A program made the position numbers and the translations under genes. Below are positions 1-57,132 of a DNA stretch of 64,000 nt, one piece after another. Under the pieces are notes generated by a model. The model was not told where the DNA came from and ran no database searches. It was given only the letters and a program-made list of their open reading frames with translations. How positions within the stretch are numbered: position 1 is the stretch's first letter; each line of letters begins with the position of its first letter. The stretch is from an uncultured Dehalococcoidales bacterium (lineage in GTDB: Bacteria; Chloroflexota; Dehalococcoidia; Dehalococcoidales; BS750m-G39): the NCBI GenBank assembly GCA_964396965.1, contig CAYNGD010000001.1:67596-131595 (forward strand), in the 5' to 3' direction.

Positions 1-1113
1 CTGTTTCTCAATCTCGCCGTAGCCCTTGTAGTTGAAGTCGATAGCCTCCCTGACCACATCGGCCGGGGCGGCCACCGGCTTAATCCTCATCCGGCTCAGC
101 GCCGAAAAGGCCTCCAGGGCAAAGATGTCGGTGGGGTCGGACATGGCCACCTCTAGGGTATTGCCGGATACCGCCAGCGGTATGGCACTGTACCTTCTGG
201 CCATAACCTCGGGGATTAACTGCAGTGCTTCCGGCTGGGGGGCATGCCTTAAATGCCTCTGCGCGGACTTGGCCACCGGAGCCTCCGGCTTTTCCGCCTT
301 TACCGGCTCATTCTTGGGCGGGGCCGGCTTTTCTTCCGGCGGGGCCGGTTCCTCTTCGGCAGGCAAGGCCCGGGGAGCCGGCTGGTGATTTAACTCAAAA
401 ACCTTTATCTGCTGGTGCTCAGCAAACTGCCTGGCTTCAGGGCTGAGCCGGGGCGAGACGACGATGACCTTTTCATCAATGCCTACCTCGTAGGCCTTGG
501 TGTCAAATACGGATACCGGATCCAGGCCCACCTCTTCCTCATCGCTGATGAAATCTATGCCCAGGCTGTGGCTGACCTGGTCGGTGTTGGTATAGGCTAA
601 TACATCAAAGTTATACTCTACGCCGGAACGGCCCCGAATCTTGGCCTGTTCCTCCACAGCGTAGCCCCGGTCAATGAGGGCCTCCACCAGCTGCTCTTTG
701 GTCTCAAATTTGAGAGGCTCCAGCGGCGTAGCTGGCGTCTGGCATTTCACCTCAAACATCGACTCAATCTGCTCTATGTCAATGACCTTTATCCGCTGCT
801 TCTGGGCCAGCTGCTTGGCCTCCGGGCTGATATCGGAGGCGACCAGGAGCCGGCTCTGGATACCGGTATCGTAGGCCTTGTTGGCGAAGCTGAAGATAGC
901 CTTTATCTCCTTCTCCCGCTCACCGCCGGCGATGATGCAGATGGCAATCCGGTAGGCGGTGAAGCCGTCATCCTTCTGGGCCAGCATATCAAAGGTATGC
1001 TCAATCCCGGACTTACCCATAAGCCTGGCGTTGTCGGTTATCTGGTAGCCCTGCTTTTCCAGGTAGTCTCTAACCTGGGACTTCAGCTCTAGGTCGCTCT
1101 CAACCTTACTCAT
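1..1113 (-). CDS. GspE/PilB-type secretion or type IV pilus ATPase, N-terminal part (gene runs off the window start)
   Basis: My own translation of the minus strand from ATG at 1113 (GGAGG 7 nt upstream) stays open to nt 1 (371 codons). It is absent from the ORF track because there is no stop in the window. It has two tandem ~120-aa modules, a Pro/Glu/Lys linker, then a T2SSE_N-like segment LIPEVMARRYSAIPLAVSGNTLEVAMSDPTDIFALEAF. Confidence 0.65.
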   Translation of the reverse strand, partial: MSKVESDLELKSQVRDYLEKQGYQITDNARLMGKSGIEHTFDMLAQKDDGFTAYRIAICIIAGGEREKEIKAIFSFANKAYDTGIQSRLLVASDISPEAKQLAQKQRIKVIDIEQIESMFEVKCQTPATPLEPLKFETKEQLVEALIDRGYAVEEQAKIRGRSGVEYNFDVLAYTNTDQVSHSLGIDFISDEEEVGLDPVSVFDTKAYEVGIDEKVIVVSPRLSPEARQFAEHQQIKVFELNHQPAPRALPAEEEPAPPEEKPAPPKNEPVKAEKPEAPVAKSAQRHLRHAPQPEALQLIPEVMARRYSAIPLAVSGNTLEVAMSDPTDIFALEAFSALSRMRIKPVAAPADVVREAIDFNYKGYGEIEKQ

Positions 1114-1235
1114 GTCACCGCCTCCGTCCCCGGCTGCTTCTGTCTCGACCAAACTTTCCACTCAAAATACCCTTCCCTTATCCTAATTTTTTGGAATTAA
1201 CCCCGCGTAGAACCAGCGTTTAAATCCGGTTAAAA

Positions 1236-1919
1236 TCACACCTTTACCACCGCCGGAATCCACCCGTTGCGCATGGCCAGGGCCACGGCATGAGCCCGGT
1301 CATTGGCATTCAGCTTGCGCAGGATAGAGCTGACGTGGTTCTTTATAGTCTGCTCGCTTATCTCCAGAATGTGGGCAATCTGCTTATTGGAGTTGCCCTG
1401 GGCGATATAGTTCAGTATCTGGGTCTCCCGGTAGGTAAGAGGGGCAGTTACCGTCTCCATGACCTTTCCCGCCGAGACTATGTCCCGGAACTGCCTCAGG
1501 ACATGCTCGGCGACGGTGGGCCTGGTGATGAGGCTGTCATTGATGGGGTATTCGCCAAGACAGGCCCGCCGGATAATACTGACCAGCTCTTCGATGGTGG
1601 TGTTTTTATTAAGGTAAGCTACGGCACCGGTCTTGATAACCTCAAATAGCTCATCATCGCTGGAGTTGGGGCTGAGAATTATTACCCTGCTGTTGGGATA
1701 GCGGCGGGTAATCTTCCGCCCCAGCTCTAGCCCGCTCAAGGCCGGAAAATTTATGTCAAGCAGGACAACATCCGGAGACTCGGCTTCAATGGTATCCATG
1801 GTCTCATCATTAGGGGCACCCTCCAGCACCCTGAACCCGGACTGCTCCGATAGCGCCTGCCGGACGCCATAACGAAAAAATGCCTGCTTGTCAATTATCA
1901 TTACCGTAATATCGTTCAT
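1236..1919 (-). CDS. Response regulator, receiver domain plus LuxR/NarL-type HTH
   Basis: 227-aa ORF with an N-terminal receiver (DVVLLDINFP) and a C-terminal LuxR HTH (LTYRETQILNYIAQGNSNKQIAHILEISEQTIKNHVSSILRKL). Confidence 0.9.
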   Translation of the reverse strand: MNDITVMIIDKQAFFRYGVRQALSEQSGFRVLEGAPNDETMDTIEAESPDVVLLDINFPALSGLELGRKITRRYPNSRVIILSPNSSDDELFEVIKTGAVAYLNKNTTIEELVSIIRRACLGEYPINDSLITRPTVAEHVLRQFRDIVSAGKVMETVTAPLTYRETQILNYIAQGNSNKQIAHILEISEQTIKNHVSSILRKLNANDRAHAVALAMRNGWIPAVVKV

Positions 1920-2155
1920 CCGGACACCCCCTCACCATACTCACTAATCTTTTTCCCACCGTTGTTATGCTGCTCAGCCAGGAAGGTGGAAACATCCTCC
2001 GACCGGAACCTCCGGTCACCCCTGGAACCGATGCGATAGGTCTTTATTACCCCCTGATTGCTCCACCGCCTCACCGTATTTATATGCACATTGAGGAGGC
2101 GGGCGACATCGCTGGTGGTCAGCATGGGGTCAATATTACGACTGTCATTTGCCAT
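1916..2155 (-). CDS. MerR/excisionase-type helix-turn-helix DNA-binding protein
   Basis: 79 aa containing LTTSDVARLLNVHINTVRRWSNQGVIKTYRIGSRGDRRF. Its stop overlaps the response-regulator start in an ATGA junction (1916-1919), which suggests translational coupling. Confidence 0.75.
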   Translation of the reverse strand: MANDSRNIDPMLTTSDVARLLNVHINTVRRWSNQGVIKTYRIGSRGDRRFRSEDVSTFLAEQHNNGGKKISEYGEGVSG

Positions 2156-2325
2156 AGCTTGTTCCTCTCCTGAACTATCTAAACCTTACCTCTTACTACT
2201 GTAAATTATCTTACTTCTCGTAACAATCACCCAAAAGGGCTAGCCAAAGGTAGCAATTGGTCATAGTACTTTTGAACTAGAGTGAAAGAGATGGGCAAAT
2301 GAGTGTGGGAGTTTAAGCCAGCTGG

Positions 2326-3909
2326 CTAGCGCTTGCGCCTTTTGTACATCCAGAAGACCAGGCCCACCAGCACCAGGGCAGCCAGGCCGTAAAGGATGTA
2401 CCAGACCCCGGCGGCCATGGCCGTCCTGGAAAAGCCGACGTAGAATAACCCCACCGTTGACCACTCGCTCTCGTTTGAGGCGCCGTCCACCGCCCTTACC
2501 CGCCAGTAGTAGGCTTTCTGACCGGCTGGAGCCAGCTTTTCCTCTTCGGTCAGGGTATATTCCGAGAGGGGCAGGCCCTGTTTATCCACCAATATGTTGG
2601 TGAAATCAACGTCCGAGGCAACCTGAAGGGTATAGCTCACCCTGCTGGGGTCGGTGACATCGCTCCAATCAAAGCGTGCCTTCTCCTCGGCGGTGCCGGC
2701 GGCCTCCGGTACTTTAAGCACCGGCACCGGCGGCGGCGCTGACTCCATGATGAAGGTGGTGGTGGCGGTGATGTTCCCATCGGTGGCTGTTATAAGGTGG
2801 CTTCCCGCGGTGCTGGGGGGTACGGTAAAGTGAGTGGTGAAATTGCCGTCAGCGTCGGCAGTGGCGCTGGTCTGAGATATAACCTCGTCACCTTCATGAT
2901 AACTGATGTTAACGGCGGCCCCGCTGGCAAAGCCATCGCCGTAGATAGTAATCTCCATGCCGACATTTCCGGGGGAGTCAGGGGTGGTAAGCGGCCCCAG
3001 CCGGATGCTGCCCAGCACCGTCAGCTGGGCCTCCGCCTTATTTAAGGCCAGGTCGGTGGCCTCTACATCTATAATGGGGTTCTCGTAGAGGGGGGCGGCA
3101 AAAACACAGTTAAAGCTACCCTGAAGGTCGGTCTCCAGGTAATTAGGGGTGGTCTCAAATCTATTGCCGTCAAGGGTAAGCTTGATGGAAAGCTCGGCCC
3201 CAAAGCCGGTGCCGATAACCTGCACCGTTTTTCCCCCTGTCTGCTGGGCCGGGACCAGGGTTATCTTCGGCTTAACGGTGAATATCGCCTCGGGCTTATC
3301 GCCCGACTGGTCAGCCACCACCACGACGTGCTCACCGATAACGCCATCGGGAATAACCACGGTGCAGCTGAATTTACCCTCGCCGTCAGTCACCGTGTCC
3401 CCGCCGGCTATGTCAATTTTATCATCCCCGTACTTAACGGTGATTGCCTGCCCCGGACCGAGGTCGTCTCCGCTAATCACGACCTCGTCGCCCACCGAGC
3501 CCTCCTCCGGCTCAAGCTGGATTTCACCCTTGATTACGGTAAAGGTGGCCACCGCCACTATCTCCTTGCTGGCACTGGCGGCGTAAAGATAATACTCCCC
3601 GCCGTGCACATCCTCCTTATGGGTACCGTCTTCAAGCCTCTCCGGCACCTTGAAGGTATCGATGGTTATCTGCAGATAGGCCCTGACCTGGTTGCCGATT
3701 TTGTCACCCACTTTGGCTTTATCGCTGGAGAAATAGAAGCGCGCCGACACATCACCCGAATAGCTAATATTAACCCAGTCCCCGATCTTCCCCTCCTTAG
3801 GGGTAAGGCTGAGGGACGCCGCCGCCACCGTAGCCGCGGCCAAGGTCGATAGCAACAGGGCAAGAATAATGCCTAGTGCCAGCAGGCGACAGAGCTCTCT
3901 ATACCTCAT
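2326..3909 (-). CDS. Secreted, C-terminally membrane-anchored surface protein with TIG/IPT-like repeats and an FN3-like domain
   Basis: I trimmed the track ORF to the ATG at 3909, preceded by GGAGGT (revcomp of acctcc at 3914-3919). Signal peptide MRYRELCRLLALGIILALLLSTLAAATVAAA, repeated Ig-like beta modules, FN3-like YYWRVRAVDGASNESEWS, and a C-terminal TM helix plus KRRKR. Confidence 0.8.
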   Translation of the reverse strand: MRYRELCRLLALGIILALLLSTLAAATVAAASLSLTPKEGKIGDWVNISYSGDVSARFYFSSDKAKVGDKIGNQVRAYLQITIDTFKVPERLEDGTHKEDVHGGEYYLYAASASKEIVAVATFTVIKGEIQLEPEEGSVGDEVVISGDDLGPGQAITVKYGDDKIDIAGGDTVTDGEGKFSCTVVIPDGVIGEHVVVVADQSGDKPEAIFTVKPKITLVPAQQTGGKTVQVIGTGFGAELSIKLTLDGNRFETTPNYLETDLQGSFNCVFAAPLYENPIIDVEATDLALNKAEAQLTVLGSIRLGPLTTPDSPGNVGMEITIYGDGFASGAAVNISYHEGDEVISQTSATADADGNFTTHFTVPPSTAGSHLITATDGNITATTTFIMESAPPPVPVLKVPEAAGTAEEKARFDWSDVTDPSRVSYTLQVASDVDFTNILVDKQGLPLSEYTLTEEEKLAPAGQKAYYWRVRAVDGASNESEWSTVGLFYVGFSRTAMAAGVWYILYGLAALVLVGLVFWMYKRRKR

Positions 3910-4030: not shown

Positions 4031-4669
4031 ATGGAGATGAAAAATCTGACTACTTCCATCCAGAAGCAGGTGGAGCAGGCCATCATCATCCTGAAACAGG
4101 GGGGCATCGTCGCCTGCCCCACCGATACCGTCTACGGAGTGGGCGCCGCCATCTACATTGAGTCGGCGGTGGAGAGGGTCTACCAGATAAAGGGGCGGCC
4201 GCGCAGCCGGCCGCTGCCCATCCTGCTGGCCGAGAAATACCAGATGACCGAAGTAGCCAAAATCGTGCCGCCGCTGGCCCGGCGCCTGGCCGACCGGTTT
4301 TTCCCCGGCGCCCTGACCATAGTGCTGCCCAAGGCCGACTCTGTCCCCGATATCGTCACCGGCGGGCGCAAGACCATCGCCCTAAGAATCGCTGACCACC
4401 CCATACCCACCGCTGTCGTCAAGGGGCTGGGGATTCCCATCGTTGGCACCAGCGCCAACCTAAGCGGAAACCCGAGCGCCCTCACCGCCGAGGAGGTGCG
4501 TGCCCAGCTCGGCGACAAGGTGGATATGATTATCGAAGGCGGACGCTGCCCCGGCGGGCGGGAATCGACCATCATCGACCTGAGCGGGGAGAGCCCGAGG
4601 ATTCTGCGCTCGGGGCCGATATCAATGGAAGAACTTAAGGAGATATGCTCCAGCCTGGTTATGGCCTGA
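4031..4669 (+). CDS. tsaC: L-threonylcarbamoyladenylate synthase (YrdC/YwlC/Sua5 family)
   Basis: I trimmed the track ORF to the ATG at 4031 (MEMKNL...). YrdC signature QGGIVACPTDTVYGVGA and GTSANLSG. Confidence 0.85.
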   Translation: MEMKNLTTSIQKQVEQAIIILKQGGIVACPTDTVYGVGAAIYIESAVERVYQIKGRPRSRPLPILLAEKYQMTEVAKIVPPLARRLADRFFPGALTIVLPKADSVPDIVTGGRKTIALRIADHPIPTAVVKGLGIPIVGTSANLSGNPSALTAEEVRAQLGDKVDMIIEGGRCPGGRESTIIDLSGESPRILRSGPISMEELKEICSSLVMA

Positions 4670-4675
4670 AGGAGA

Positions 4676-5125
4676 ATGGAGATGCGCGTTGCCATCGGCG
4701 CCGACCACCGTGGGGTGGAGCTGAAAAAAACGGTCATCAGCCTGCTTGAGGCCGCCGGATACGAGTACGAGGACTTCGGCAGCTACGGCACCGAGTCGGT
4801 GGACTTCCCCGATTTCGCTATAAAGGTGGCCAACGGGGTGGCCCGGGGTGACTTTGAACGCGGCATTTTAATCTGCGATACTGGCATCGGCATGTGCATC
4901 GCCGCCAACAAGGTGAAGGGAATCAGGGCCGCCCTCTGCTATAACGTCTTCAACGCCCGGCGCGCCCGCCAGCACAACAACGCCAACATCCTCTGCCTGG
5001 GGGCCGGCGAGGGAGAGCTGCAGGACCCGGTAGCCGAAATCGTTAACGCCTTCCTCACCACCGAGTTTGAGGGGGGGCGGCACCAGCGCCGCATCGACAA
5101 GATAACGGCCATGGAGGGCCAGTAG
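4676..5125 (+). CDS. rpiB: Ribose-5-phosphate isomerase B (RpiB/LacAB family)
   Basis: 149 aa. MRVAIGADHRGVELKK..., CDTGIGMCIAANK, NANILCLG are typical of RpiB. Confidence 0.9.
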   Translation: MEMRVAIGADHRGVELKKTVISLLEAAGYEYEDFGSYGTESVDFPDFAIKVANGVARGDFERGILICDTGIGMCIAANKVKGIRAALCYNVFNARRARQHNNANILCLGAGEGELQDPVAEIVNAFLTTEFEGGRHQRRIDKITAMEGQ

Positions 5126-5146
5126 CTACCCCTCAAGGAGGGAAAG

Positions 5147-5175
5147 TTGACAATAAATGGGAACTGTGCTATCTT
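5147..5175 (+). promoter_or_regulatory. Sigma-70-type promoter of the ilv-leu operon
   Basis: TTGACA (5147-5152), a 17-nt spacer, then TATCTT (5170-5175). Confidence 0.6.
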
Positions 5176-5183
5176 ATCTGGTA

Positions 5184-5237
5184 ATGAAAACTCAGAATCT
5201 GGTTCTGGTACTTATTGTTATGAAGCAAAGCCCGTGA
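5184..5237 (+). CDS. Putative ilv-leu leader peptide, 17 aa (MKTQNLVLVLIVMKQSP)
   Basis: Too short for the ORF track. Seven consecutive Leu/Val/Ile codons lie at 5199-5219. The ORF sits between the promoter and an intrinsic terminator just upstream of ilvD. It has no SD, and the ATG lies about 8 nt after the -10 box, so it would be leaderless or nearly so. Confidence 0.5.
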   Translation: MKTQNLVLVLIVMKQSP

Positions 5238-5259
5238 GTGGGGTTTAGCTGCAACGTGA

Positions 5260-5285
5260 GCCGTCCCCACGGGACGGCTTTTTTT
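5260..5285 (+). terminator. Intrinsic terminator/attenuator in the ilvD leader
   Basis: GCCGTCCC-CAC-GGGACGGC (8-bp GC-rich stem) followed by seven T (5279-5285), 25 nt before the ilvD start. Confidence 0.8.
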
Positions 5286-5310
5286 ATAATAAATATAAAT
5301 AGGGGAAAAT

Positions 5311-6978
5311 ATGAAAAGCGACGCTGTCAAAAGAGGTATAGAGCGGGCACCGCACCGGGCTTTGCTGCACGCCCTGGGCTGGAGCCGGGACGATATCGAT
5401 AAGCCGCTCATCGGGGTCATCAACAGCTTTACCGAGATTGTCCCCGGCCACATGCACCTGCCCCAGATTGCCCAGGCGGTCAAGGCCGGGGTGCGGAGCG
5501 GCGGCGGCGTCCCCTTCGAGGTCAACACCATCGCCGTCTGCGACGGCATCGCCATGAACCACCCCGGCATGAAGTACAGCCTGCCCAGCCGTGAGCTCAT
5601 CGCCGATTCGGCGGAGATAATGGCCGAGGCCCACGCCTTCGACGCCCTGGTCTTTATCCCCAACTGCGATAAGATAATCCCGGGGATGCTGATGGCGGCG
5701 GTGAGGCTGAACCTGCCGGCCATCTTCGTCAGCGGCGGCCCGATGCTGGCCGGGCGCCGGGAGGTCGGCGGCAGGACCGAAGCGATTGACCTAAACACCG
5801 TCTTCGAGGCGGTGGGTAGTGTGGCCGCCAGCAAAATGAAGCCGGAGGAGTTGGATGAGCTGGAGGCGCTGGCCTGCCCCGGCTGCGGCAGCTGCGCCGG
5901 TATGTTCACCGCCAACACCATGAACTGCCTGACCGAAGCCCTGGGCATGGGGCTGGCCGGCAACGGAACAATACCGGCGGTGGATGCCCGGCGGCTAGAG
6001 CTGGCCAGGAAGGCCGGAGAGCAGGTGATGAGGCTGCTGGCCGATAACATACGCCCCAGGGATATTATAACCGGGGAGGCTATTTATAACGCCTTCGCCG
6101 TGGATATGGCGCTGGGGGGGAGCACCAACTCCGTCCTGCACCTGATGGCCATCGCCAGCGAGGCCGGGGTCGATTTCCCGCTGACCAAAGTAAACGAGAT
6201 AAGCCAGCGCACCCCTCATCTATCTAAGTTGAGGCCTTCCGGCGACTATCATATCGAGGATTTGGACCGCGCCGGCGGAATACCAGCGGTAATGAAGGAA
6301 TTAAAAACGCTGCTGAATTTAAAGGTAAAAACCGTTTCGGGGAAGGCATTGGGCGAGGTTATCGCCGCCGCCCGAAATACCGATGAAGAGGTCATCCGCC
6401 CCTTTGACCGGCCTCACTCCCCTACCGGCGGCCTGGCTATCCTTTTCGGCAACCTGGCGCCGGAGGGAGCGGTGGTGAAAAAAGCGGCAGTCGCCCCGGA
6501 GATGATGTCCCACCGGGGCAAGGCGCGGGTCTTTGATTCCGAGGAAGAGACCACCAGGGCCATTATGGCTAAAAAGATAAAGGCGGGTGAGGTGGTGGTC
6601 ATCCGCTACGAGGGGCCCAAAGGGGGGCCGGGGATGAGGGAGATGCTCACCCCCACCTCGCTGCTCAGCGGGATGGGTATGGACAAAGAGGTGGCCCTGA
6701 TTACCGACGGGCGTTTCTCGGGGGCGACGCGGGGGGCGGCCATCGGCCATGTCTCCCCCGAAGCCGCCAGCCGAGGGCCCATCGCCGCCCTGAAAGACGG
6801 TGATATAATCAGGATTGATATTGAAAATTGCAAGCTCGACGCTGAGCTTTCTGATAAAGAGATAAGCGAGCGCCTAAAGCTACTGGCCGAGTTCGAGCCC
6901 AGGGTCAAGACGGGCTATCTCAAGCGCTACGCCGAGAAGGTGACCTCGGCCAGCACCGGCGCCGTGTTCACTAGATAG
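5311..6978 (+). CDS. ilvD: Dihydroxy-acid dehydratase
   Basis: 555 aa. IlvD signatures [45 protein letters not shown]. Confidence 0.97.
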
Positions 6979-51987: not shown

Positions 51988-52030
51988 GGGCCGCTAGCTC
52001 AACTGGCAGAGCAGCTGACTCTTAATCAGG
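51988..52030 (+). pseudogene. Truncated tRNA-Lys(CUU): 5' half only (acceptor 5' strand, D-arm, anticodon arm)
   Basis: GGGCCGC-TA-GCTC-AACTGGCA-GAGC-A-GCTGA-CTCTTAA-TCAGg. The anticodon CTT is at 52021-52023. No variable loop, T-arm or acceptor 3' strand follows, and the last stem base is mismatched. Confidence 0.75.
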
Positions 52031-52049
52031 GAATGAGGGAAATTCTGGT

Positions 52050-52173
52050 TGACAAAAGTGCAATTTTCAATGACATTTTGTCATCTTTAGATACGAAGCT
52101 GTCCAAAATGCTGTCCAATAAGTGCTGTCCTGTCTGGGGGATGCTGACCTAAATGTTAGCAAAATGTTAGCAA
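52050..52173 (+). repeat. Cluster of short repeats next to the tRNA fragment (att/arm-site-like)
   Basis: Inverted repeat TGACAAAA (52050-52057) / TTTTGTCA (52076-52083). GCTGTCC occurs three times (52098, 52110, 52124). A perfect tandem AATGTTAGCAA x2 lies at 52152-52173. Confidence 0.7.
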
Positions 52174-52656
52174 AAATGCGTACCCTTTACTCCCCGGCTG
52201 CCCTGTGGTAGCCTGTGCGGGGTGGTCTGGCGCCATGGTCAGGATAAAGAAGTATCGCCTGCCGGCAACAGGAGCACAGGAGTATGTCTGCCAGTGCCCG
52301 CGCAGCCTGACCCTTGAGACCCTGTGGTTCAGGGGTGGTGTCCTGGTCCCGACAAAGAAGTTCAGCCAGGGGGAAGACGGCAGCATCTATCATGATTGTA
52401 ACCGGGGCTCAGCTAGGCCGTGCCGACTGTTCTCCACGTGGAAGGTAAAGCCCCGGATGTTGTAACCGTAAAAAGGTGTATGCCATACACCTTTGTTGTC
52501 ATATCTAAAGCCAATGACCAAGAGTAAACGGCAAAAAGAACTGTCTAAAGATAGATTGAGAGTCTGGATTTAACCACCACCGCCGAGCTAAGAAAGACTT
52601 GCATTTTACGCCGTGCTGGAATAATCTGTATTAGGAGCAGCAGTTAGGAGATTGCA

Positions 52657-53289
52657 TTGGGAGAAGGGAAAGCGAAACCAAGGATTTCACTTTTAGCCAA
52701 CGATATCTTTGTAAAAGCGCCCTGTGTCATGTGTGGCAAGTCTTTTAAAACAGGAGAGATTTTGCCTACGCTTTACGAAGAAGATGGGCTTGGCGGCTAT
52801 GTTTGCGATGACTGTGCTTATGAACCACAGAACTACGCCGCCAAACTAAGAGCGCAAGCCGAGGACTTGGAAAATGAAGCTCAAGGCTTGGCGGCGTGGC
52901 TTAGGAGCTTAGCTGACTCTGGTATCGAGCCACCGGATGCTGACTATAGACTGGAATTGGAGAGCCTTATCGCCGTAGGAGACTCTAAGGAGACCGAGAA
53001 GTTAAATGCTGCGGAGCAGGAAAAGGACCTGCCTGCGGAGAATTTGAAGGGCAAGAAGTTTCTAGGCCTTACCTGGGACGGAGGTGGCAAAAAGTTAGTT
53101 CTCCTCTTCGAGGGGGACAGGATTCTGTGGATTGCACCGGCTAGGAAAGGGGAAGAGGGTGAGGAGCTTGTTGTCGATACAGATGCCGCGTTGATCCTTG
53201 GAGAGGGCCCCCGCGGTGATGAGCTTATTGACCACACCAAGGGATACTTCGGGCCTGCCCCGGGGACTGCATTGCACAAGTGGAGTTAG
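52657..53289 (+). CDS. Hypothetical protein with an N-terminal CxxC...CxxC zinc-ribbon-like motif
   Basis: 210 aa, TTG start. CVMCGKSF...CDDCAY. Confidence 0.5.
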   Translation: MGEGKAKPRISLLANDIFVKAPCVMCGKSFKTGEILPTLYEEDGLGGYVCDDCAYEPQNYAAKLRAQAEDLENEAQGLAAWLRSLADSGIEPPDADYRLELESLIAVGDSKETEKLNAAEQEKDLPAENLKGKKFLGLTWDGGGKKLVLLFEGDRILWIAPARKGEEGEELVVDTDAALILGEGPRGDELIDHTKGYFGPAPGTALHKWS

Positions 53290-53359
53290 TCTGAGCAGTG
53301 GAACGGCCTAATCTACTTCAGCGTTACCTGCCTTACCCTTAACCCAATCCCTCTTTCCC

Positions 53360-53685
53360 TATCGGGGATTCTAGCGGAAGGAATGTCCCATAGCCCCCAA
53401 CAATGTCAAAGCTAGTTGGTCCCATACACCATAGCTGGCCGTTGCCATTATGTCCCATATGCTCGCCTCCAGTTGTTAACGGTCTGGAAACTGGACCGCG
53501 GTAGATTTTCATCCAAAATGCAGCAGCTGGAATGTGAGTCGAGAATAAGTGTAACTGGCGGAAGCTGAACTGATTTTATTTTTTCGTCTTATCCTCCACT
53601 AAGCGCCGTTGGAACCAGTGGGAAGATGATTATATCTAGCACTGCTACCAAATTCTGGGCAGATAGATTGATTGGCGTGTAACCT
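53360..53685 (+). repeat. Long non-coding direct repeat, copy A (about 326 bp)
   Basis: Aligns block by block with 55183-55665 (for example ACACCATAGCTGGCCGTTGCCATTATGTCCCATATGCTCGCCTCCAGTTGTTAACGGTCTGG). No conserved reading frame on either strand. Confidence 0.8.
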
Positions 53686-53750
53686 AATCCTTAAACAACC
53701 TCTCCCCCGGGCGGGGTGAGAATGGTAGGTCTGCGAAACAGAGGAAGATT

Positions 53751-54770
53751 TCAGGCGGGCAGGGTCTCGCGTGCTTTATCCGCTTTACCCAGTTCGTCCT
53801 TGGCCGGCTCCTTAGGCGGTGAAACCTCTTTCTTCATCAGCTCGTCAGTGTCGATATACCTTTCCTCGGCAAGGCGGTTCAACATGCCACTAAGCTTGAG
53901 AGCTCCCTTGACAAACTCCTCGCCATCCTCAAAGTTTAGCCACTCGTCAAAGGCATTAATGAGGTCTTCGTCACGGGCTGTTACTATCCGCTCCCTCCTT
54001 TTGACCATTATCTGGATTATGCTACGCTTTTCCTCGGGGTGCCCGGTAATGATGTTGATGAACTCACGGCAGAGGGGTTGAAGCTCGTCCATATCGTCCC
54101 CCCATTGGAGCTCATTGACCATTTCCAGCTGCGAGCCCAGCGTTCCTGCCCAATCTTCATAGCCGTAATTACCGAGGAATCTACCTACCACACCCTTAAT
54201 GTATTTAGGGCAGGGAATATACCAGGGGAGGATATCCATATAGTGCTGCCTCAGTGTCTCATCTGCTTTTCTTCTTCTGGCTGCCTCTCCCTGGCGTTCC
54301 TTATCTTCCCGCTCGAGGCGTTCCCTTTCCAGCTTAGCATCCTCTTCCAGGACCGGATTCAGCTCCTCACGTTTTTGATTGACTAGATTAGCTAGCGAGT
54401 CCAACTCATCGAGTTTCTCTGCCTTTTTTACTTTGTCTTTGAGAAATCTCAGATTGTCAATAGCCAGCTGTCCCTTCTTTCTCAGCTCGCGGGTTTCCCA
54501 ATGTCTGTTTTCGATCTTGCTGAGCGTCTCACCAATGTCCCAGCTGAGTTCGTTTCTGGTGGTGATCAGGCAGAACTCATCCTCGAGGGAGAGCTTAACC
54601 TCTGGTGTCTCTTCTACCTTGCTTTCTTCCTTCTCCTCGGGCCAGTATTTCCTGACCGTTGCTCGGTCCAGGTTAAGCTCCCTGCCTGCAGCCGACTTGG
54701 AGTAGCCCCGACCAGCGAATTCAGCTATCTTGGCAATCAGGTCTTCGTTTATTATTCTCGGCATTTTCAT
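53751..54770 (-). CDS. Hypothetical protein: N-terminal HTH, central charged coiled coil, C-terminal globular domain
   Basis: About 339 aa. HTH-like FAGRGYSKSAAGRELNLDRATVRKYW and an E/K/R-rich coiled coil. The start is ATG 54770 (or GTG 54773, or ATG 54764). Confidence 0.65.
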   Translation of the reverse strand: MKMPRIINEDLIAKIAEFAGRGYSKSAAGRELNLDRATVRKYWPEEKEESKVEETPEVKLSLEDEFCLITTRNELSWDIGETLSKIENRHWETRELRKKGQLAIDNLRFLKDKVKKAEKLDELDSLANLVNQKREELNPVLEEDAKLERERLEREDKERQGEAARRRKADETLRQHYMDILPWYIPCPKYIKGVVGRFLGNYGYEDWAGTLGSQLEMVNELQWGDDMDELQPLCREFINIITGHPEEKRSIIQIMVKRRERIVTARDEDLINAFDEWLNFEDGEEFVKGALKLSGMLNRLAEERYIDTDELMKKEVSPPKEPAKDELGKADKARETLPA

Positions 54771-55182
54771 CACCGCCTATAACGCTTTTTTCTTTTTAAC
54801 GCTGGGAGTCCGTTTAAGCCTTGATTTTCTGCCTGGTTGAAGACCAGCGTATCAACCCCCAAAAATAATGGTTTTAGGGGGCTTAAGCGGGCATTAGCGG
54901 GCATAAAACCTTAATCAGCACCGAAAAAGCTGACATCCGACAGCTAGCCATTACTTCTTTATCTCGAGATTTTTTACGCTGTTTCATCATCTATATTCTA
55001 CCAGTTTTTCTACTATTCTTCACCCCTGATGTCACCTGGGTGATGAATTAACTTGATAGTGGGTGGTAAATTAAGTCGGTAAACGACAAAAGGTTGGTGA
55101 TTTACAGGTTTTTTTACCCGCCTTTGAATAAAGTTTCTGGCATAAATGAAATAAATACCCTGAGACTTTTTGATGGAACTTT

Positions 55183-55665
55183 GAGGGGGATTATGCCCTA
55201 GTGGGAGTAATGTTCCAGTGGTTTTCAGTTATCTCAAAGCTAATTTGTCGCAGACACCATAGCTTGCCGCTACCATTATGTCCCATATCTCGCTTCCCGG
55301 TTGTTAACAGTCTGGGAATGGACTGGACCACGGGTAGACTTTCATCCCAAATGCGGCGTACAACTGGAATGTAAGTCGAGAATGAGTAACTGGCGAAATA
55401 GAAGCTCCTAACAAGCGGTAAATCATCTGCGAAGATTATTGAGCTTGGCTGTGGGAAACCCGCTGTCTACAAAGTGAGGAAAACGAAACAACCGAATGCT
55501 TCTCCGTCCTGCGGTGCTATATTCTTTAGCACTACTCTGTCTGGCAAGCCCCTCTGATTTTGTTACATTCTCCTCCGCTAAGCACTTGTTGGAACCAACC
55601 ACAACAAGGCTTATATCTGGCAATGCGACCAAATTCTAGGTAGATAGATTGACTGGCATGGAACC
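55183..55665 (+). repeat. Long non-coding direct repeat, copy B (about 483 bp, with an extra internal segment of about 150 bp at 55400-55555)
   Basis: See copy A. It shares the 5' block (to about 55400) and the 3' block (CTCCTCCGCTAAGCACTTGTTGGAACC...CCAAATTCTAGGTAGATAGATTGACTGGC). Confidence 0.8.
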
Positions 55666-55868
55666 AAATGCCATGATAACCCCTTTCTTCAAGCCAGCAA
55701 CCTCAGCTTTAGCAGACCTCCCGCAAAGGGTGGTGACTACCGAATGGATGGCTTACCTGCTGCACAAAGCGATGTTACGTTCAGTGGGTTACAAACTGGC
55801 TAATGGGTGAAGAAGAGAACACCTACACACCGCGCATATACCGAATTCAACCATGACCATCTTACTCT

Positions 55869-56681
55869 CTATGTTTCCTCTTCAGCGTGTTGAGGTGTCT
55901 CTGGTGACTGCGGGAACTCGCCGTCCAGGGCATTTATAGCAATCTTTCTGACCTCCACAGAGAAATCTGCACCGATAATCCAGCTCAGGTAACTCGTATC
56001 TTCCATAGCTATATCTTTTAATTTTCGGCCCCTATGCTTCTTACCGAAGTTGCAGACTGCTTCACCCTCCGACCATATAAACTTGCCCTCTGCATCTATA
56101 TAGTTCTCCTCAACCTTGTAGCACAAGGCACAGAGTCCGGCTACATCCCTAGGCAGGTCTTGATACATCTCTAGCTGACCTTCCAATATCTCAGCCGATG
56201 CCTTGGCATCCTCTTTAGCTATATGGGCATTATTCATTTCCTTACCACAATACTTTTGATAGGCGGCTTGGAGGTCACGTGGTTCACGTTGGTGGTAAAT
56301 GGTCTTACTGTCAACTAGGTACCGACCTTGGCGAGAGAATTCAATGCCAGCTCTCGCAAGTTCAGACTCCAAGCAAGGCAAGTCAAACGTAATAACATTG
56401 AATCCCGCAATATCGCAACCATCAAGAAAGTCACGAATACTCTTTGCGTACTGGCCAAATTTAGGTTTATCAGCAACGTCCTCGTCAGTGATGCCATGTA
56501 CTGCTGTTGCTTCGGGTGGAATGGGTACCCCGGGGTTAATCCTGCGGCTGTGATATCCTTCCGTACCGTCAGGTTGAATCTTGAGAATAGACAATTCCAC
56601 TATTCTATCTGAATATGGGTTGAGACCAGTAGTCTCCAAATCGATAAATGCAAGAGGCCTGTCAAGTTTAAGGTTCTTCAT
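55869..56681 (-). CDS. DEDDh 3'-5' exonuclease (DnaQ/ExoX-like) with a C-terminal FGKHRG...YLSWI domain
   Basis: 270 aa. Exo I FIDLETTGL, Exo II AGFNVITFDL, Exo III HIAKEDAKA. The C-terminal NFGKKHRGRKLKDIAMEDTSYLSWII resembles the DUF3820-type tail. Confidence 0.8.
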   Translation of the reverse strand: MKNLKLDRPLAFIDLETTGLNPYSDRIVELSILKIQPDGTEGYHSRRINPGVPIPPEATAVHGITDEDVADKPKFGQYAKSIRDFLDGCDIAGFNVITFDLPCLESELARAGIEFSRQGRYLVDSKTIYHQREPRDLQAAYQKYCGKEMNNAHIAKEDAKASAEILEGQLEMYQDLPRDVAGLCALCYKVEENYIDAEGKFIWSEGEAVCNFGKKHRGRKLKDIAMEDTSYLSWIIGADFSVEVRKIAINALDGEFPQSPETPQHAEEET

Positions 56682-56766: not shown

Positions 56767-57132
56767 TTATTTCGACAGTATCAGCCTATTGACTATTTCC
56801 TCGATGCGCTTAGTATCTGAAACAACTCTTTTCAGCAGTGTGTTTAGTTCAATCCGTAATTTCTCTCTCTGCCCATCTGATGATAACGATGTTCCTGGTG
56901 ATAAATGACCAGTCATAATAAGCAACTCGTACAGGTCAAAACCAAGAGGTTCAGCAATCTTTTGCAGGGTCAGGGTGGATGCTCCACGCTGTCCCTGTTC
57001 TATACGCCCCAAATGAGCAACAGAAACACCGGACAGCTTGGCCAGTTGATTCAGGGTAAGAGATCGTTTCTTCCTCTGTTCCCTTATCATTTTGCCCAAG
57101 TCCGATTTTCTACCCATCTCTACTCTTAGCAC
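56767..57132 (-). CDS. XRE-family HTH transcriptional regulator
   Basis: 121 aa. IREQRKKRSLTLNQLAKLSGVSVAHLGRIEQGQRGASTLTLQKIAEPLG. Confidence 0.85.
   Translation of the reverse strand: MLRVEMGRKSDLGKMIREQRKKRSLTLNQLAKLSGVSVAHLGRIEQGQRGASTLTLQKIAEPLGFDLYELLIMTGHLSPGTSLSSDGQREKLRIELNTLLKRVVSDTKRIEEIVNRLILSK

Follow-up and report, generated by a model that had tools for sequence, protein, structure and literature searches.

What are the two similar non-coding segments that lie on either side of a helix-turn-helix (HTH) gene in the genome of an uncultured Dehalococcoidales bacterium? They were noticed in a stretch of 64,000 nucleotides (nt) (positions 67,596 to 131,595 of contig CAYNGD010000001.1), which was analysed as a whole and is called the window below. 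Three identities had been proposed for them: structured non-coding RNAs, ends or att sites of a small mobile module carrying the HTH protein, and duplicated regulatory regions. We found that they are two copies of a conserved intergenic module that recurs in small mosaic integrative elements of uncultured Dehalococcoidia. A full-text literature search retrieved no published description of this module, and no Rfam family corresponds to it.

The direct repeat formed by copy A (53360-53685, plus strand) and copy B (55183-55665, plus strand) was borne out, far beyond chance. As seen by BLASTN and alignment, its first block covers 161-168 nt with 81% identity (E 1e-35) and its second block about 100 nt with 77-78% identity (E 2e-14). 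The extra 150 nt or so that B had been said to carry between the blocks do exist, at roughly 55400-55550 (plus strand). They form a lineage-specific insert, which is missing from A and from the B copy of another locus, L038, and is partly common to L079. The word GTCCCATA is indeed present three times in A (at 53385, 53419 and 53452, all within 75 nt); it occurs once in B (55280) and once elsewhere, making five occurrences in the 64-kb window. The non-coding nature of the repeats was also confirmed, the longest open reading frame (ORF) in either copy being at most 57 amino acids (aa) long, and the differences between A and B showed no 3-nt periodicity when the alignment was read by eye. Pfam searches of eight neighbouring ORFs agreed with the original remark that no transposase, reverse transcriptase or Cas gene is nearby.

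BLASTN and a profile of the conserved core found exactly two copies, A and B, in the 1.75-Mb, 91%-complete assembly to which the window belongs. The search for further copies that had been proposed was nevertheless fruitful, as copy B led to a wider family. BLASTN of B against 60 relatives gave two fragments at chance level, one of which (L005) was a true relative. This 1.7-kb contig, from another family of the order, contains the 3' end of a transfer-messenger RNA (tmRNA) gene, a reverse-strand ORF that we take as an integrase by analogy with L019 and L024, the 3' block of the module and the start of a new core. Search patterns were then built from words common to the relatives. A 31-nt pattern (TCAAAGCTNNNTKGTCNCANANNCCATAGCT, with at most 2 mismatches) was found in 4 of the 363 species genomes that represented the order, among them the genome of the window. 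A 49-nt pattern (CAAAGCT-N15-CCATAGCT-N-GC-N9-TATGTCC) matched three records among genome contigs, all of them metagenome-assembled genomes of Dehalococcoidia/Dehalococcoidales and two of them G056 and G178 again, as well as 64 metagenome contigs; it had no match in viral contigs. G183 was also counted among the family members. The core profile gave 110 matches in 69 loci, and the named or grouped genomes that contain the module all belonged (five out of five) to Dehalococcoidia or to the window's own order.

The invariant core, about 90-110 nt long, runs from AATGTCC to TATGTCCATATGC and includes the invariant words CTCAAAGCT and CCATAGCTGGC; the part common to the whole family can be written ...GATTATGCCCYGGTGGAAGTAATGTCCTA..CCnTCAACTATCTCAAAGCT-N15-CCATAGCTGGC-N9-TATGTCCATATGC. 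The two variable stretches measured 15 and 9 nt in 72 pattern-selected cores, in which these lengths were fixed by the search pattern, and had the same lengths in most copies that the pattern had not selected. The same conserved words were kept in these unselected copies. Core positions free of the search pattern showed a mean identity of 0.60, as compared with 0.26-0.28 in the ungapped flanks, which could not be aligned between lineages. At least two cores were present in 33 of the 69 loci, mostly in direct orientation and often in tandem. A truncated core (profile positions 24-109) was frequently found about 265 nt ahead of a full one, and a few loci had divergent core pairs around a centre of 2-3.5 kb.

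In the window, core A extends from 53369 to 53462 (plus strand; profile positions 16-109; nhmmer E 1.2e-23) and contains the three GTCCCATA boxes, while core B extends from 55183 to 55287 (plus strand; profile positions 3-106; nhmmer E 6.8e-25). About a dozen copies of the family share with the window an extension of the core, an AT-rich stretch and the 3' block. Copy A is a whole module of this window type and aligns end to end with the modules of L020, L038, L039, L040, L043, L057 and L066. Its AT-rich stretch, GATTTTATTTTTTCG (53572-53586), lies between the blocks and is conserved across window-type modules. The 3' block of A (53593-53684, plus strand) opens with TGGAACCAG (53610-53618) and closes with a degenerate version of this 9-mer, and that of B (55590-55667, plus strand) is bounded by a perfect 9-nt direct repeat, TGGAACCAA (55590-55598 and 55659-55667). 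The 3' block was found alone, beside the start of an integrase gene, in L005/L015 and L024, and L036 lacks exactly the stretch between two TGGAACCAG words. This block may be a small inserted element or a deletion-prone unit.

Several other observations were made on this part of the module. The 3' block holds an imperfect inverted repeat. To the right of the core of L079 (Ga0224501_10048645), it is present as a fold-back, with its leading 21 nt first and then the entire block in reverse complement, which may reflect either a genuine inversion or a chimeric assembly. A 47-codon ORF (55496-55639, plus strand) spans the insert and the 3' block of B, is preceded by GAGGAAAA and encodes a hydrophobic stretch. 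It is probably spurious, because it has no counterpart in A or in the B copy of L038.

A coding function of the core itself was not apparent, since in typical cores every frame contained stops when the alignments were read by eye. The best minus-strand frame contains TAG in cores of the GGCCTATAC type, and a minus-strand frame of 18 codons is interrupted by TAG in many cores. Upstream of full cores (e.g. L024, 10560-10600), GGAGAAGATTATG is followed by CCC TGG TGG RAG TAA, which has the appearance of a Shine-Dalgarno sequence with a 5-codon mini-ORF containing two Trp codons. The stop of this mini-ORF is the same TAA at which truncated cores start, and copy B of the window (55190-55210) reads ATG CCC TAG at this place. 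This plus-strand mini-ORF (MPWWK-type) was rejected as a gene, as it is not conserved. On the minus strand of the cores (e.g. L024, 10638-10666), the 9-nt variable stretch is usually purine-rich (GAGGAGG, GAAGAGG) and is located 7-9 nt before an ATG; this was not retained as a gene either, only 6-8 variable codons being present.

To which DNA does the module belong? Clustering of the ORFs near cores identified recurring families: tyrosine integrases, F4, F7, F8, HTH340 (the family of the HTH protein encoded between A and B) and DEDDh exonucleases. F4 comprises small winged-helix proteins, whose genes end inside the core. In the window, F7 is an 86-aa Cys-rich ORF (52205-52465, plus strand), found just upstream of cores in 7 loci and without Pfam or NCBIfam match; F8 is a 210-aa ORF (52657-53289, plus strand), located 117-155 nt upstream of cores in 6 loci and without match in Pfam, PHROG or NCBIfam. 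The DEDDh (DnaQ/ExoX-like) exonuclease gene follows copy B (55869-56681, minus strand; Pfam RNase_T, 5e-22), and a member of its family (f48) follows the cores of L024. Genes for tRNA-Arg, tRNA-His, tRNA-Glu or tmRNA were present 1.5-2 kb to the left of the cores in L016, L019, L024, L036 and L071, with an integrase gene between the two in 4 of these 5 loci and another ORF in L036. A tmRNA gene likewise adjoins in L005/L015, so that tmRNA is the neighbour in L005/L015, L019 and L024, and the genes next to tmRNA are those of tyrosine integrases. The distribution among related genomes was sporadic, cargo and flanks were mosaic, and HTH340 was present or absent beside otherwise similar cores. The core-bearing family thus consists of small mosaic integrative elements of uncultured Dehalococcoidia that adjoin tRNA or tmRNA genes.

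L061 encodes a large serine recombinase (4099-5946; Recombinase and Zn_ribbon_recom domains) in place of a tyrosine integrase, which indicates that the module travels between elements with different integration enzymes. L039, an element with an F7-core-HTH340 layout like that of the window, encodes a 937-aa primase-helicase (497-3307, minus strand; Prim-Pol, D5_N and DUF5906), which is evidence for self-replication of intact members. As judged from their predicted genes, these are small integrative elements of which at least some would be able to replicate. We searched the contig DNA of five loci for an attR in the form of repeats of at least 12 nt of the tRNA 3' end and found none.

Copies A and B are not the product of a recent duplication. 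Their global identity was 0.76, lower than that of window B with the B copy of L038 (0.90) or of window A with L039 (0.89). L038 displays the order integrase, F8, core A, HTH340 (minus strand), core B and F7. Its B region, the positional counterpart of window B, is 93% identical to that of the window over 622 nt, and the stretch with the HTH340 gene is 91.5% identical at the nucleotide level; the core is thus at least as well kept as the neighbouring gene. G178 (L011/L016) has cores on both sides of a decayed HTH340 gene. This shared layout, together with the closer identities across elements, indicates that both positions have been kept since before the elements diverged, and the arrangement F8 - core A - HTH340 (minus strand) - core B is therefore an inherited architecture.

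The proposal that A and B are the ends or att sites of a small HTH module was right in assigning them to mobile-element DNA and wrong about their role. They are only 76-81% alike, and by eye do not resemble the tRNA-Lys fragment that borders the element (see below). In the relatives the cores lie inside the element, beyond the integrase as seen from the tRNA or tmRNA gene, and A and B are each closest to a different copy in another element, which for B occupies the corresponding position. Ends of an insertion sequence or of a miniature inverted-repeat element, which would show terminal inverted repeats, a target-site duplication and many near-identical copies, did not fit the module as a whole, with only two copies in the genome and no inverted repeat joining the ends of the module. 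The attC sites of integrons are imperfect palindromes (R''-L''...L'-R') of 57-141 nt found behind each cassette, whose structure is conserved and whose sequence is variable. This identity was rejected, as the core is conserved in sequence and is not palindromic, and no IntI-type integrase was recognised. The template and variable repeats of a diversity-generating retroelement were also considered and dropped, there being no reverse transcriptase nearby.

A structured non-coding RNA, the first of the identities proposed, was not supported. Rfam 15 gave no match at the gathering score in the whole window and none at E<=1 in 53000-56000. The folding energy of copy A did not differ in the expected direction from that of dinucleotide shuffles (z = +0.70 on the plus and +0.64 on the minus strand). 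With RNAalifold, 54 distinct cores yielded only 7 pairs, none of them covarying, and -3.8 kcal/mol. The sole recurrent stem, AGCUR/YAGCU, was broken without compensation in unselected copies (e.g. CCGAAGCT and CTATAGCA). A duplex scan across the family for long-range pairing of the segment before TCAAAGCT with downstream DNA gave z-scores centred on 0. One version of the idea is a folded RNA of 330-480 nt, in which the 5' and 3' blocks would pair to close a domain with a variable insert, and B's insert does fall between the two blocks. RNAalifold on the seven full window-type modules predicted 71 pairs, 3 of them covarying, a count matched by 30 of 500 shuffles. It proposed a long-range helix of 53394-53404 with 53667-53679, in which copy B shows two compensatory and four G-U compatible changes, and the covariation score was matched by 10 of 500 shuffles. 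This is a weak hint. The structure was derived from the same seven sequences, all of the support comes from one lineage, that of B, A can form a better duplex than this helix, and most members of the family lack a 3' block to pair with. Taken with the missing Rfam match, the z-scores and the lack of a consensus fold in the cores, this makes a folded RNA very improbable, and a false lead is removed in that the module is not a new large folded RNA.

Duplicated regulatory regions came closest among the three proposals, cores either following a -10-like box with constant spacing or coming immediately after the stop codon of a gene read in the same direction. When 52 distinct upstream regions of full cores were aligned, a -10-like hexamer (TAGAAT, TATAAT or TACAAT) proved to be conserved about 40 nt ahead of the core. 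The corresponding putative promoter element of window B is CATAAAT (55141-55147, plus strand), which aligns with the hexamer of the relatives. The TAA stop of an upstream, co-directional ORF marks the start of truncated cores. In L016 one core begins two bases past the integrase stop, and cores lie 46-155 nt behind F7 and F8. The integrase, F4, F7 and F8 genes are all co-directional with the core, and the DNA to the right of cores is variable and usually contains convergent genes. The module is thus probably transcribed, from the conserved -10 box or by read-through, and the position of this box or of the co-directional stop means that the core would always be read rightwards, towards variable and usually convergent DNA.

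On this basis we lean towards the view that the module acts in cis for the element that carries it and is neither an RNA gene nor an att site. That the core acts in an orientation-dependent manner as part of a transcript is a plausible version of this view, which we hold with some doubt. Its conserved words would then be recognised as sequence rather than as a fold, by a host factor, by a factor of the element or through base pairing, and the effect would be on transcription, or on the fate of RNA, running into convergent genes. The core might set how far rightward transcription proceeds against such genes, i.e. HTH340 after A and the exonuclease after B. Lambdoid phages offer a parallel with their promoter-proximal RNA sites, nutL/nutR and, in HK022, putL/putR. 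As in these phages, each element has a pair of similar non-coding sites, which lie just past promoters or genes, surround a repressor-like HTH gene and would act in cis on ongoing transcription. Unlike the put and boxB sites, which are defined by stem-loops, the core has no conserved stem-loop; A and B are direct rather than divergent, and no N- or Q-like gene was recognised. A bolder and tentative proposal, which we consider rather unlikely as a whole, is that the core is a new sequence-defined cis element, transcribed in one direction, which controls read-out against convergent cargo across the island family, through tandem copies and copies that flank a repressor-like gene, and which could double as a joint for module swapping. 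If true, it would be the organising unit of an undescribed family of mobile elements, in a phylum with almost no genetics.

Several points weigh against a cis-acting transcribed core. Transcription and promoter are both deduced from the sequence, the -35 region is poor, and copy A of the window lacks such a -10 box. Because the core was defined through a search pattern, the apparent invariance of 24 positions is inflated, a bias that is partly controlled by the unselected copies. No protein partner was found in all loci, most of the contigs being short. Lastly, a role at the DNA level equally well explains conservation of the primary sequence without covariation, and would fit the triple GTCCCATA boxes and the break-points of homology at ATGTCC and TGGAACC.

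The most serious competitor is a protein-binding array on DNA, in which the three (A/T)TGTCC(C/T)A boxes about 33-35 bp apart and the AT-rich stretch would be iterons; we regard it as possible, though on the unlikely side. Such an array, bound by the primase-helicase of the element or by an HTH protein, would serve replication of the excised element or provide operators or partition sites, and the two copies would be two iteron clusters. It accounts for the concentration of GTCCCATA in A (three of the five in 64 kb, in 75 nt), for the AT-rich stretch that follows the boxes in window-type modules and for sequence conservation without covariation. The boxes also co-vary within lineages, GTCCCATA occupying all three in window-type cores and pairs of boxes with GGCC or TCG being found in some others, and L039 does encode a Prim-Pol/D5_N/DUF5906 protein. 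However, beyond the window-type lineage the three boxes share little except TGTC, the only primase-helicase seen, that of L039, is separated from the core by 3 kb and by the integrase gene, and no partner protein is common to the loci as a whole. Nor would an array of this kind require that cores point the same way as upstream genes, as they strictly do, or keep a constant spacing from the -10 box. The satellite phage P4, with its ori and crr, and satellites of the SaPI type, with their iteron origins, resemble the present elements in that they are small and integrative and have two separated direct blocks of about 100 nt with three short direct boxes each, and a primase-helicase occurs in the family studied here. 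They differ from them in that no initiator gene is left in the window, the boxes are clear in one lineage only and the cores are tied in orientation to promoters or stop codons.

Homology between elements does start and stop at AATGTCC, TATGTCC and TGGAACC. The cores and TGGAACC words could therefore be joints at which modules are exchanged, inserted or deleted, by site-specific or homologous recombination, with HTH340 plus core as a cassette. The exact deletion between the TGGAACCAG words in L036, the perfect 9-nt direct repeat in B, the presence or absence of HTH340 beside similar cores and the mosaic flanks all point in this direction. Yet ordinary recombination turns any conserved segment into a break-point of homology. 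The inverted-repeat core site typical of tyrosine recombinases is missing from the core, which is not palindromic like attC either, and contigs from four runs showed no A-B joint, the single apparent case being a mosaic relative. We consider such a function improbable. Still less credible, to our mind, is a pair of face-to-face promoters, as known from the switch of phages 186 and P2, in which a minus-strand promoter inside the core (TGGACA-17-TATGGT, i.e. the reverse complements of TGTCCA and ACCATA) would face the rightward -10 box about 94 nt away and, in B, read into HTH340. This was the sole promoter-like match in 1.1 kb of L024, and a promoter spacer would explain why the 9-nt variable stretch keeps its length. 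Of 88 distinct cores, 26 passed the scan on the minus strand, as compared with none when the stretch was scanned on its plus strand or was shuffled. This is only 30% of the cores, though; the last -10 base is among the most variable positions, both window copies fail the scan (8/12 by eye), and conservation reaches well past the two hexamers.

The gene between the copies was present as described. It extends from 53751 to 54773 (minus strand) and encodes 340 aa if translation starts at a GTG and 339 aa if it starts at the ATG that follows. The HTH340 family comprised 13 ORF fragments in 12 loci, with six full-length members 67-86% identical to the window's protein. An AF2 model (mean pLDDT 72) was all-helical, with an N-terminal HTH and a 64-residue central helix; it had no fold match in PDB or BFVD, and the protein had no match in Pfam. 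The N-terminal HTH was weakly similar to that of IS21 IstA (E 0.05), and other matches were likewise weak and of transposase type. Most core-bearing loci had no HTH340 nearby, so that this protein is not the universal partner of the core.

The two iteron-like features reported upstream of the HTH340 gene were both confirmed. The AGCGGGCAT doublet (54887-54905) is also present in L038 and G178, and the palindrome TCACCTGGGTGA (TCACC-N2-GGTGA; 55032-55043) recurs in further loci that share this upstream region, as seen in the portion of the alignment that was inspected. They are the likeliest candidate operators of HTH340. Just past the HTH340 stop, a GC hairpin (CCCC-GGGC-GGGG, 53705-53716) may be the terminator of this gene on the minus strand; relatives have a hairpin of different sequence at the same place.

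The window's own element is a remnant that spans about 8 kb, is present once, lacks an integrase and adjoins half of a tRNA-Lys gene. This is the 5' half of tRNA-Lys(CUU), with the 5' strand of the acceptor, the D arm and the anticodon arm; it is located at 51988-52030 (plus strand) and was detected as a partial match to the Rfam tRNA model (positions 10-42, 16.4 bits), and ARAGORN reported neither tRNA nor tmRNA genes in the window. In other organisms, contigs continue past the half tRNA into T-arm sequence (GGTTCGA). A 3' half was looked for and not found in the window and in the 91%-complete assembly, in which the only other tRNA-Lys is tRNA-Lys(UUU), on contig C19. The half gene is the probable left scar of the island, and either the island destroyed the gene of the CUU isoacceptor or the other half lies in unassembled DNA. 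Genomes of the same genus share with the window, at the DNA level, only the segments at 49.0-50.4 kb and 58.3-59.3 kb, which means that about 8 kb is variable; these limits are approximate, as the flanks fall on different contigs in those genomes. No integrase was found among the window ORFs tested with Pfam. The read depth of 52000-56388 was 19.7, as compared with 20.7-24.5 for unique contigs on either side, indicating that the element was chromosomal and single-copy in the source sample. Contigs from four runs contained no circle and no A x B deletion. The joints 53459>55296 and 55341>53535, considered as possible products of A x B recombination, shared a depth of 17.1 and looked like a single contig, from a mosaic relative.

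Islands with tyrosine integrases that integrate in tRNA or tmRNA genes are catalogued in Islander (PMC4383910), and include small tycheposon-like islands of streamlined genomes (bioRxiv 10.1101/2020.12.28.424599). The present elements resemble such islands in that they adjoin tRNA or tmRNA genes, with the integrase beside that gene, a partial tRNA as boundary, mosaic cargo and a sporadic distribution. They differ in that the feature studied here is an internal repeated non-coding module rather than an att site, and in that the scar in the window is a 5' tRNA half, with no restored gene and no integrase left. The ssrA islands of Dehalococcoides mccartyi, which have the serine recombinases DsiA/DsiB and a six-gene integration module (McMurdie et al. 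2011, PMC3146451), come from the same class of organisms, have the same tmRNA target as some of the relatives found here (L005/L015, L019 and L024) and are tandem or accreted. In contrast, the enzymes found here are tyrosine integrases, and none of the six-gene module was seen. The words 'non-coding' and 'intergenic' do not occur in that paper, which therefore describes no such module. Dehalococcoidia, which abound in sediments and have small genomes, are hardly accessible to genetics. The module is a marker for a family of small elements that integrate themselves, in some cases with a primase-helicase of their own, and provides a handle for finding them in metagenomes, as the contigs retrieved with the 49-nt pattern illustrate. 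If its role were pinned down as a promoter unit, an origin or a recombination joint, it could become a vector part for these organisms.

A few other features of the variable region were noted. An XRE-type HTH regulator is encoded at 56767-57132 (minus strand; Pfam HTH_3, 6e-14). Right after the half tRNA, 52040-52175 is dense in short repeats (TGCTGTCC three times, AATGTTAGCAAAA twice), and contigs of several runs join position 52174 or thereabouts back to 51988 across about 21 other letters, which suggests that similar repeat-plus-tRNA arrangements exist elsewhere. In the source run, 56359-56661, within the exonuclease gene, was present in two versions, one identical to the window (depth 23.6) and one with 29 differences in 303 nt (depth 4), the latter belonging to a second strain or to a related element in the same sample.

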